IMG/VR virus record: IMGVR_UViG_646311923_000009
Length of the DNA: 25,667 bases
Strand: one strand, 5' to 3'
DNA from: a virus
Lineage: Duplodnaviria > Heunggongvirae > Uroviricota > Caudoviricetes
The position numbers are program-made. Below, piece by piece: positions 12,001 to 15,000 of the stretch (positions within the stretch are counted from its first letter, which is position 1; the number at the start of each line of letters is the position of its first letter).

Positions 12001-15000
12001 TGGCTTACCACAACACGCACACGGCTGTGTCTTTACCCAGCGTGTGTATTTCTCATTTACCCAGCGGCGACGTTTAGGTCGTTTCATGAAGGATTCCGGA
12101 GACTCCGGATCAACGGCAATGCTGACCACCGTCTTTTCCTGTGGTGGGTTCTGTTGCTGGTGGGTGTGAGGCGGTAGCGCAATATTTTTTGTGCGCTGCT
12201 TCAGTATGCTGGTGGCGGTCTGCTCTCCCGGTACGATGTCGCTTTCGCGGTACAAGGAGCGGATTTTTTCCACACGTAACCCCAGAGAACGACGTAATAC
12301 GGCCTCCGGTAGCGCGTCCGCCACCTGATTGCGGACCGCCCACCAGGATAATTCAGCCAGAGATAATTCACGCTCCTGCGTACCGCTTATTGCGTGACCG
12401 ATGACGTCAATCATCCATGCTGACAGGTTTTGATGAGCAAGTTGCTCGAGTGATTCGGATGTCTGGTCCCGTAGCTGGTTGTCGCAGTGCCAGCACAACA
12501 CCATTGCGCCGGTACCATAACGGTGAATGACAGTTTCGCTGTGGTGATAATCGCCGTGTGGCCACTGGCAGGATTTAATATGGCGCAACAGCCAGTCAGA
12601 CAATGCACCAGCACCACCAGCAGCACGAATCACTCGTTCGTCGCTGAAAAATGGCAGCAATGTTTTGTCTTCCACCAGCGGCTGGCGAACGGCAGGAACG
12701 ACCCCGGACGGCAGATTACGCATGCTTTTCGGTTCCGGCTCCACCAGTACCCGGGTATTGTGAAATACCTGCATGGATTCACGACCTGGCTTAAGGACCA
12801 CCAGCCCGAGTTCCGGTACCAGAACAGGTCGAAGTAATACCCGCACGTTACCTCCAGATCCGTTGCTGGAATGTGCGGGACGGACGCGGTGGGCGTTCGG
12901 AGTAAGGAAGCCTGACGGAGATTATCCAGTGACGATAATCGAGGCTGAGGGCTTTCCTAAACTCATACCCACGTCTGCGGTAGTTCTGAATCAGCCATTC
13001 GGCCTGTTCTTCAGTGCATGGGTCGTGCCGGAACCAGTCAGATTTGAATGCATGAGAACGCCGCCCGTGCCTGCTGGCAAAGACGGCTGAATTATCAGAA
13101 TTGTGTAGTCTGGAATTTTGCGCCATCGGCTTTCTCCGGTGGCACAGTGTTACTCAACAGGGGTTCAGCCCTGCGCTGAATTGTAGATGAATTCACTCAT
13201 CTTCAAAAGCAGAAAAACCAGCCTTAATCCCAGCGTCTTTCAGAGACGGCAACGATGTGACAAATTCATTTGCACGCAAAATAAAACCATCCGTCACAAG
13301 CCCATCCACAAAATGAATTAACGCAGCTCCACTCTTCCTTTGTTGAGACTGTAAACATTTAATACGGCAGTGGCTGACAATAGCGCCATTCTCAACGCGC
13401 ACAGTATAGAGGCCATCTTCACTAAAAATTTCACGTAATTCTTCGATTTTCATCAACAGAATCCTTCCAGATAAATAGCACTCCCCTGTTCGGGGTCCAT
13501 CCCTCTTCTCCCTGCGCGCTACTTAAGTATTTTTGATTCTATTCCGGCGCCGTCCGGAACTTCAAACGCGTTGAAAATAAAAACAAAAACCCGCCGAAGC
13601 GGGTTAAGTGCGGGTGCGTTGAGGATGCCTGACACATCAGAGGTGGCGAGGGATTTCTCCCCCGCCTGGTCTCTTACTCCTCAGGTTCGTAAGCTGTGAA
13701 GACAGCGACCTCCGTCTGGCCGGTTCGGATTCGTACCTCGCAGAGGTCTTTCCTCGTTACCAGTGCCGTCACTATGACGGTTAAACAGATGACGATCAGG
13801 GCGATTAACATCGCCTTTTGCTGCTTCATAGCCTGCTTCTCCTTGACCTTTCGGTCCGTAAGAGGCAATCTATATGTGACGAGCATATAGGGGCCTCACT
13901 TCGATTTATAGTCGGGTGGGGCTTTTATCTATCTGCCGTTGGTGTTCATGCCCGAGGCAGATAGCCTCAAGCACCCGCAGCAATTCTACTTAACTCTGCC
14001 GTTACAGCAAGCCGTTTTCGTCCGATATGGGAATTCCCATATCGGAATGAATTCAGTTCACCTGGCGAGGCTTAGCGTACAATTTTTTCCGTTTTGTGAG
14101 CTGCCCCTACATGCCGCTGGCGCGGCATCCGGAAAAAGAATCCACGTCCTGAAGGACGTGGAGGATGTCAAGTGCCTTTCCTGGTCCAGCCATATTTTTT
14201 GAATGCAGGCGCCGCTTCATCGGTTTGTAGCCATTCTGCAAATCGACGGGTTTCATCATTTGCATCCTGACGTACTGTAATGTTCATATCACGCCATATC
14301 ACGTAGTCTGGCGCTATTTCCACGACATCACCAATTTCTGGATTACTGGCTGCCCAGTCAGCCCAGGTTATCCAGACATCTGCTTCAGGCTGATTCTCAA
14401 GAGCCTTACGTGCAGTTCCGCTATTGGGCGCATATAAAATAATATTTTTTCGGATTGCGGCGACAGTTTCTATATTCCCTTTACGTCCGGCAATATCTTC
14501 CCAGACGCCAGTGCCTGATGTATTACTGGTACCACCACCATCATTAACAATTACGCCAATCCCGGGTCTGGTCAGGTCGTCAATACTCCGGATATTTTTA
14601 GGATTACCTTTCTTTACCAGTAAAATACTTTTTCGCAGATAAAGAGGCTGAATATCTTTTTCACTGAAGCTGTCTTTATGGTCCCGAATGATAGCCAGAG
14701 CAGATTGTTCTGATGCGCCAAACAAGATATCTGCATTTTTTTTGGCATCTTCATTCCATTTGTTCTGTGGGCCGTAATGAACGTTCACTATAATACCTGT
14801 TTTTTCGGCATAAAGTTTGGCTGCATCAAGCAAGGCTGTATGCGGGCCACCAGGACCATACAGATTGATATCAGCATAAGCAGCAGAAGACAGGAATATT
14901 AAAAAACCTGCCATTATGTTCCTCATAAAAAACTCCTTTTATTGGTTATCATGAAATAAAGTTATAAACACTACAAATAATATATATTACATCCAGATAA

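Follow-up and report, generated by a model that had tools for sequence, protein, structure and literature searches.

A predicted hok/mok/sok type I toxin-antitoxin module next to paa in a defective lambdoid prophage of Shiga-toxin-type Escherichia coli

The stretch of DNA analysed here, which we call the window, is the 25,667 nt-long viral record IMGVR_UViG_646311923_000009 (IMG/VR; Caudoviricetes), and on its minus strand it harbors a locus of the hok/mok/sok family of type I toxin-antitoxin (TA) systems. The locus spans about 13578..14010 and is, with high probability, a complete hok/mok/sok module that works in the same way as hok/sok of plasmid R1. The toxin reading frame and its identity to K-12 HokD, the RNA boxes, two alternative folds of the mRNA, the covariation within the family and the homology to annotated or validated relatives were all computed directly. 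The original prediction, made by reading the sequence, had placed a stand-alone hok/sok-type locus without relBE at 13573-13930, an interval that covers hok, mok and the terminator and cuts off 46 nt of the 5′ leader and the hok promoter. The features of the locus are as follows, where SD denotes a Shine-Dalgarno sequence, ORF an open reading frame and UTR an untranslated region.

13583..13976, minus strand: predicted full-length hok mRNA of about 394 nt, which starts with GGGUGCUUGAGG, its conserved 5′ end, and runs up to the T-run past the terminator
13983..14010, minus strand: predicted hok promoter, with -35 TTGCTG at 14010..14005, a 16-nt spacer and -10 TAGAAT at 13988..13983
13964..13976, minus strand: tac (translational activator) box, GGGUGCUUGAGGC, at the 5′ end, pairing with fbi in the full-length fold or with ucb in the truncated fold
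13918..13927, minus strand: ucb anti-SD box, AAAAGCCCCA, whose partner is the mok SD region (through CCCC(AC)) in the full-length fold and the 5′ tac in the truncated fold
13894..13897, minus strand: mok SD, GAGG, read from the sequence, 7 nt before the mok ATG at 13886
13674..13886, minus strand: mok-type frame of 70 codons from the ORF list, MLVTYRLPLTDRKVKEKQA followed by Hok, in frame with hok and with a common stop
13862..13866, minus strand: dcb box, GCCUC, the partner of the mok SD region once the mRNA is truncated
13839..13843, minus strand: hok SD, AGGAG, read from the sequence, 9 nt before the hok ATG
13674..13829, minus strand: hok toxin gene, 51 codons plus stop, with the same product as K-12 hokD (RelF)
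13611..13625, minus strand: fbi (fold-back inhibitory) box, UCCUCAACGCACCCG, in the 3′ UTR, pairing with tac
13578..13605, minus strand: intrinsic terminator of the hok mRNA from the terminator scan, with a 7-bp stem (5 GC pairs), a UUCG loop and a U-run, the hairpin itself at 13605..13588
13878..13933 (approximate), plus strand: predicted Sok RNA, about 56 nt, with ends transferred by alignment from the annotated sokC, sokB and sokW
13843..13871, plus strand: predicted Sok promoter from the alignment with the family, with -35 TTGACC at 13843..13848, a 17-nt spacer and -10 CAATCT at 13866..13871

The 51-aa Hok peptide MKQQKAMLIALIVICLTVIVTALVTRKDLCEVRIRTGQTEVAVFTAYEPEE, encoded at 13829..13677 on the minus strand, matches the Pfam family PF01848 (HOK_GEF) over profile positions 1-42 of 42 with 82.9 bits (E=1.2e-23; cut-off 22 bits), while in the NCBIfam scan the Hok-family models matched only below their curated cut-offs and added nothing beyond Pfam. 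It is 100% identical to K-12 HokD, so that no inactivating substitution separates the two, and HokD is toxic on expression and has served as a toxic control (bioRxiv 10.1101/2025.08.07.668861). In genomes with the identical sequence, RefSeq labels the gene ‘hokD: type I toxin-antitoxin system toxin HokD’. The hok SD belongs to a CAAGGAG block that is invariant in the family alignments. The codon for Tyr47, UAC, is followed by G, giving an intact UACG motif at 13688..13691 on the minus strand; in the hokC, hokD and hokE mRNAs, as in hokB, A-to-I editing by TadA recodes Tyr to Cys according to a survey preprint (bioRxiv 10.1101/2025.08.07.668861).

The canonical Hok with its SD, the in-frame mok-like extension to 70 aa (13886..13674, minus strand) and the UUCG-tetraloop terminator, all noticed by eye in the original prediction, were recovered in this way. 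The mok SD is a conserved column in an alignment of 44 leaders and corresponds to the GAGG that serves as mok SD in R1 (PMC9841398). The in-frame layout with a common stop is also found in K-12 mokC/hokC and in mokW/hokW of phage 933W, and across the family both in-frame and +1 forms occur. We therefore dropped the idea that an in-frame mok is an oddity: mokC, mokW and many loci from GTDB genomes are in frame, and others, including the true R1 locus, are in the +1 frame. Among the loci fetched for comparison (L numbers), plasmid pMTY1886_IncFII (L005) encodes the identical R1 Hok peptide with an in-frame mok that starts 57 nt upstream and has 71 codons, whereas in the classical R1-type sequence (L038/L040/L045) mok lies in the +1 frame, 58 nt upstream, with 70 codons. 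Because the same Hok peptide is paired with different mok frames in two plasmid loci, the mok frame is labile even among near-identical loci.

Upstream of hok, a complete mRNA leader of ~150 nt is present, because Rfam family RF01794, which models the hok-sense leader, matches here over its full model (minus strand 13976..13827, model positions 1-157, 103.9 bits, E=7e-23; gathering score 59) and ends at the hok ATG. An Rfam hok/sok search had been suggested as a check; the family name calls for care. RF01794 is named ‘sok antitoxin (CssrC)’, and yet it falls on the hok-sense strand in the window (13827..13976) as well as in L003 (902..1054) and L004 (1567..1718), all on the minus strand; for K-12 hokC and hokB, too, the match is on the strand of the toxin gene, facing the annotated sokC and sokB (~57 nt). 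What RF01794 really models is the hok mRNA leader, and its strand and its end at the hok ATG led us to reject the match as an antitoxin gene; the strand of an Rfam “sok” match must not be taken as the antitoxin strand, which is an annotation trap. When 13450..14170 was searched in E-value mode, only sub-threshold noise was returned (isrK, rsmX, HgcC and others) and no separate family on the Sok strand. Part of this noise was a match to IsrK, a small RNA (sRNA) of Salmonella prophages, spanning the 3′ UTR of hok together with fbi and the terminator (13584..13665, minus strand; 24.9 bits, E=0.003, gathering score 50), which probably reflects shared hairpin and terminator features.

The hok promoter was placed by alignment with K-12 hokC, 933W hokW and about 60 other loci. 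Its predicted -10 element aligns with TATAAT of hokC and with TAGAAT of hokW at an equal distance from the conserved 5′ end GGGTGCTTGAGG, and transcription is predicted to start with the G at 13976. At the other end of the transcript, the terminator reads AACCCGCTTCGGCGGGTT followed by TTTGTTTTT and is conserved in K-12 hokD; the terminator scan over 13400..14250 recovered it together with the terminator of the upstream gene paa (14162..14141).

In silico, the mRNA takes up two alternative folds. The full-length RNA (13976..13583) has a minimum free energy of -166 kcal/mol (z=-7.1) and its 5′ end is closed onto the 3′ end: nucleotides 1-12 bind UCCUCAACGCACCC (13625..13611) in the 3′ UTR, and the CCCC of ucb pairs with the GAGG of mok. 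When 45 nt are taken off the 3′ end (13976..13628, z=-5.9), the 5′ end re-pairs with AAGCCCC of ucb, and in the centroid structure GAGGC (13897..13893) pairs with GCCUC (13866..13862), with the mok start inside the hairpin. The closed full-length and open truncated states are those of the R1 hok mRNA (PMC9841398). In RNAduplex, the first 14 nt bound the 3′ UTR best at position +49 with -21.5 kcal/mol, and only 2 of 300 shuffles were as good. Across the family, the tac/fbi duplex is found at the conserved UTR positions +46 to +57 with compensatory changes (GGGUGC/GCACCC, GGGCGC/GCGCCC, GGCGC/GCGCC), and RNAalifold recovered the tac/ucb stem, which is also drawn in the structure line of RF01794, from 44 distinct leaders with changes on both sides in 6 of its 15 pairs. 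Both long-range stems, tac/fbi and tac/ucb, thus covary across about 45 family members, as judged by duplex analysis and by RNAalifold on the leader, a covariance model of the full-length RNA (~390 nt) being beyond practical calibration limits. Given the Rfam E-value of 7e-23 and the fold z-scores of -7.1 and -5.9, the locus is not a chance match, and in silico all regulatory parts of the plasmid R1 model appear to be present.

The antisense RNA had been predicted on the plus strand over the mok start, and the alignment with sokC (reference ends 953..1011 in L003), sokB and sokW, together with a hairpin followed by a U-rich tail, places it at about 13878..13933. Sok would begin in codon 3 of mok, span the start and SD of mok and reach into ucb. 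In its predicted fold (-21.4 kcal/mol, z=-4.6) 9 nt at the 5′ end are free, 13887..13928 form a long hairpin and the 3′ tail is rich in U, the same architecture as in the annotated sokC and sokB. The -35 element of the putative Sok promoter overlaps the hok SD on the opposite strand. In most members of the family the sok promoter reads TTGnnn-17-TAnnnT, and the window and the hokC group are without the first T; the -35 element and spacer are identical to those of K-12 sokC (TTGACC-17-CACTCT). Knock-down of sokC by CRISPR interference is strongly deleterious in K-12 (bioRxiv 10.1101/2020.03.04.975888). By analogy, a promoter of the TTGACC-17-weak -10 design probably works, since sokC has the same -35 element and spacing with CACTCT and its knock-down is deleterious. 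A Sok promoter and a Sok terminator, the lack of which the original prediction had regarded as telling against the locus, both appear to be present as homologues of the elements of working relatives.

In the scheme that we infer for this locus, including both promoters, the Sok ends, the 3′ processing, the dependence on RNase III and the biological role, a constitutive promoter would yield the ~394-nt hok mRNA, in which tac is clamped to fbi and ucb hides the mok ribosome-binding site, so that the full-length mRNA would be stable, untranslatable and blind to Sok. Slow 3′ trimming would remove fbi, upon which the 5′ end would re-pair with ucb and the mok start would be shown in a hairpin. The short and unstable Sok (~56 nt), transcribed from the opposite-strand promoter that overlaps the hok SD, would then pair with the mok start region and lead to cleavage by RNase III. 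Once the supply of Sok stops, mok would be translated, and in-frame coupling would yield the 51-aa membrane toxin Hok. The role of such a module is likely the addiction to, or stabilization of, the prophage remnant that carries paa, or else it has no selectable role.

Several points weigh against a complete and working module. A scan for sigma-70 consensus promoters over 13400..14250 did not flag the hok promoter, because its -35 element matches the consensus at 3 of 6 positions only, and it reported neither a sigma-70 promoter nor a Sok terminator on the plus strand; both promoters were placed by homology because the scan flagged neither of them. The Sok -10 element CAATCT matches 2 of 6 consensus positions and is without the T at -12 of most relatives. 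Compared with 933W hokW and pSTEC1024, the alignment shows a 21-nt deletion in the hairpin region of Sok, which shortens it from 71 to about 56 nt, the size of sokC. The Sok promoter is the weakest link of the module, and that Sok is expressed here is suggested by homology, as its -10 element is poor by consensus and went unflagged. With regard to function, the intact chromosomal hokA, hokB and hokC were reported not to mediate post-segregational killing (Pedersen & Gerdes 1999, as cited in bioRxiv 10.1101/2025.08.07.668861), and a complete locus need not give a measurable phenotype. Finally, the prophage has no morphogenesis genes, and therefore a role in phage release such as that of hokW-sokW cannot apply as such.

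The scan result, the -10 element that departs from the TAnnnT of most relatives and the 21-nt deletion would also fit a toxin-only relic, in which Sok is not made and nothing but the closed fold of the mRNA, or else a dead hok promoter, holds Hok back. We regard this as very improbable: the annotated and functionally required sokC of K-12 has a -10 element that is just as weak (CACTCT), along with the same -35 element and spacing, the shortened region still forms a hairpin with a U-tail like those of sokC and sokB, and the Rfam score is far above its threshold. A second alternative, which appears unlikely but less so, is a complete but physiologically silent locus, in which the RNAs are made but the toxin is never released under natural conditions and nothing is stabilized, the locus hitch-hiking as a remnant in a decaying prophage. 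The state of the prophage argues for it, with its IS3 insertions, its frameshifted nleG7, terB and fimbrial genes and its missing head and tail genes. However, all regulatory elements are intact and the toxin ORF is unchanged, the same variant is present at an identity of at least 99% in about 585 genome records, and the harm done by knocking down sokC means that a fall in Sok lets at least one chromosomal hok locus make toxin. A working module of the R1 type remains our preferred reading.

The genomic context bears on what such a module could do. The element sits between ydfJ and rspB, the site of Qin in K-12, and comprises genes for an integrase and an exonuclease, dicB, DicF, cI/cro-like and replication genes, paa, hok, a rem-like gene, DUF968, rusA, Q and a partial lysis cassette. 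Because of its insertion-sequence (IS) copies and the lack of morphogenesis genes, it is a defective lambdoid prophage of Shiga-toxin-type E. coli, with the hok locus in the early-right (nin-like) region and hok in the same orientation as the replication genes, paa, rem, ydfU, rusA and Q. The gene upstream of hok (14926..14168, minus strand; 252 aa) had been described as an orphan solute-binding protein gene; it does have an SBP_bac_11 fold by Pfam, but rather than an orphan transporter component it is the adhesin gene paa, which RefSeq annotates as ‘AcfC family adhesin Paa’, and the NCBIfam scan of Paa returned only weak matches to sulfate-binding-protein models. The 1.8-kb paa-hok block is 100% identical to the chromosomes of O103:H2, O45:H2, O121 and related Shiga toxin-producing strains.

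A perfect 24-bp palindrome, CCGATATGGGAATTCCCATATCGG, lies at 14022..14045 between the paa terminator and the hok -35 element; among the 87 fetched loci it was found only in two with the same paa-hok block (L002, L087), and it may serve as an operator or as an insulator hairpin, or be the scar of a recombination event. Downstream, between the hok terminator and the rem-like ORF (13456..13193), a promoter-like sequence TTGAAG-18-TAGAAT (13536..13565, minus strand) recurs in K-12 as a conserved site, from which the block of rem, ydfU, rusA and Q may be transcribed. Elsewhere in the window, Rfam matches above threshold were obtained for the STnc100 sRNA (9655..9821, minus strand; 101.6 bits), the DicF sRNA (20920..20971, plus strand; 77 bits) and the ALIL frameshifting pseudoknot of an IS3-family element (5669..5785, minus strand; 120.9 bits), which are consistent with a Qin-like prophage.

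The early-right position suggests a further alternative, in which the locus helps lysis timing and phage release like hokW-sokW of the Stx2 phage 933W and of Sakai prophage Sp5. This pair is an experimentally validated type I TA system whose deletion halved the release of Sp5 and delayed lysis (PMC8621323). Upon induction Sok would be lost, possibly through early-right read-through across paa that hits the convergent sok promoter, and Hok would permeabilize the membrane early. The 86% nucleotide identity to hokW-sokW speaks for this, as does the orientation of hok along with the early-right genes, by which read-through would be sense to hok and antisense to sok. Yet the element has no morphogenesis module, a truncated lysis cassette and no progeny to release, the 933W locus lies elsewhere, near the right end, so that the early-right position is not common to both, and a terminator (14162..14141) separates paa from hok; we consider such a role improbable here. 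Equally speculative, and given little weight by us, is the combined proposal that the module acts as an induction sensor and that translation of the in-frame mok gives a Hok isoform of 70 aa with an N-terminal extension: antiterminated read-through from the early promoter would produce 5′-extended hok transcripts that are unable to form the tac/fbi clamp, would collide with the sok promoter and would switch on Hok or Mok-Hok at derepression. A RecA-dependent loss of SokW has been reported for Sp5, and if true, the induction-sensor reading would give a mechanism for it.

To judge how common the locus is, we surveyed 5,426 complete E. coli genomes. The leader of the window was found at a coverage of at least 80% in 616 of them, the paa-hok block in 559, the relE-hokD junction in 1166 and the hokD-type 5′ coding sequence in 4703. 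The adjacency of paa and hok was dropped as something special to the window, given these 559 genomes and the annotated phage records. The absence of relBE had been offered as a contrast with K-12, and it is indeed absent from the whole 25.7-kb window, where tblastn with K-12 RelE and RelB gave nothing better than E=0.1; but a hokD-type gene without relBE is the usual state and not an anomaly, because the junction occurs in 1166 genomes compared with 4703 for the hokD-type coding sequence. Hok loci of the E. coli or R1 type were also met on short contigs of GTDB genomes (L017, L027, L033, L038-L040, L054, L072) titled Veillonella, Acinetobacter, Xanthomonas, Ferruginibacter, Streptomyces, Oscillibacter, Dysgonomonas and Vagococcus, which are most likely enterobacterial or plasmid contamination. 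The presence of hok/sok in lambdoid prophages of pathogenic E. coli is already catalogued, annotated (hokD, gef, mokW/hokW/sokW) and partly characterised, and likewise the system type, the sequence of the window and its neighbourhood have been annotated or described before; at this locus, RefSeq holds only the toxin coding sequence, with mok and the Sok RNA unannotated.

In PPompW, a prophage of O157 (LC567826 and related records), the locus is 99.8% identical over 428 nt, is annotated as ‘gef: phage maintenance protein’ and has the same gene order paa, hok, rem, ydfU, rusA, Q. PPompW resides at ompW, whereas the element in the window occupies the ydfJ/rspB Qin site, and the annotation in its records is limited to the 70-aa ORF, a Sok RNA being absent from them. 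The mokW/hokW/sokW locus of 933W/Sp5 shares 85.6% nucleotide identity over 96% of the locus, and its Hok is identical to that of the window at 47 of 51 residues. Both are lambdoid prophage loci with an in-frame 70-aa mok, the same 5′ end, the same tac, ucb and fbi boxes and the same -10 element TAGAAT. They differ in Sok, which is 71 nt long in 933W and about 56 nt here owing to the 21-nt deletion in the hairpin/ucb-proximal region, in the Sok promoter (TTGCCT-17-TAACCT in hokW, TTGACC-17-CAATCT in the window), in the 3′ terminator and in location, the 933W locus being near the right end of the genome and the present one beside paa, early-right, in a defective prophage.

The K-12 locus hokC (gef)/mokC/sokC likewise has an in-frame mok (MLNTCRVPLTDRKVKEKRA compared with MLVTYRLPLTDRKVKEKQA here), its leader and Sok are also about 150 nt and about 56-59 nt in length, and it has a sok promoter with -35 TTGACC, a 17-nt spacer and a -10 element without the first T. 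HokC is 82% identical to Hok of the window, and its 3′ UTR differs and is disrupted by IS186 in K-12, at a site in the core chromosome near nhaA rather than in a prophage. With hok/mok/sok (parB) of plasmid R1 the window shares tac, fbi, ucb, dcb, the mok SD, a Sok promoter overlapping the hok SD and both alternative folds. The R1 Hok is 41% identical, its mok of 70 codons begins 58 nt upstream in the +1 frame (L038, L040) instead of in frame, its leader is longer (about 173 nt), and the locus is plasmid-borne with demonstrated post-segregational killing.

A further comparison is that with K-12 hokD (relF) of the relBEF operon in Qin, which occupies the same prophage site between ydfJ and rspB and has an identical Hok, a near-identical coding region, the 3′ UTR with fbi, the terminator and the downstream rem/ydfU. 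As the original prediction had stated, hokD lies downstream of relBE in K-12, the 3′ end of relE abutting 14 nt before the hokD ATG. The two sequences are 86% identical from ydfU through rem and hok, and this identity stops at 13843, the hok SD, where it begins with AGGAGAAGCAGGCTATG. On the 5′ side of this position K-12 has relE-relB-ydfV-flxA, whereas the window has the hok leader, paa and the replication genes; K-12 thus is without everything upstream of the hok SD, namely the promoter, tac, ucb, mok and sok. The window conversely departs from the relBEF arrangement, in which a leaderless hok directly follows relB-relE, as it encodes no RelB or RelE and carries the full leader. Besides K-12 hokD, the relE-to-hok junction (...GACACTTCTGCTTTGCGTTGACAGGAGAAG-ATG) was also seen in L066 (a plasmid contig of Klebsiella michiganensis), L084 (Lelliottia), L073 (Citrobacter portucalensis), L011, L016, L036 and L044; the hok that follows it is R1-like in L066 (ATGAAACTG...), while L084 and L073 have diverged junctions in front of other hok lineages, so that the leaderless relBE-hok operon appears to have moved between hok lineages by spread or recombination. 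K-12 hokD retains the terminator and an fbi that is partnerless there, as expected if it originated from a complete locus, and the K-12 relBE-hokD arrangement would therefore be a derived, leaderless form of a complete locus like that of the window, which cleanly illustrates what the 5′-truncated hokD of K-12 looks like in its intact, ancestor-like form.

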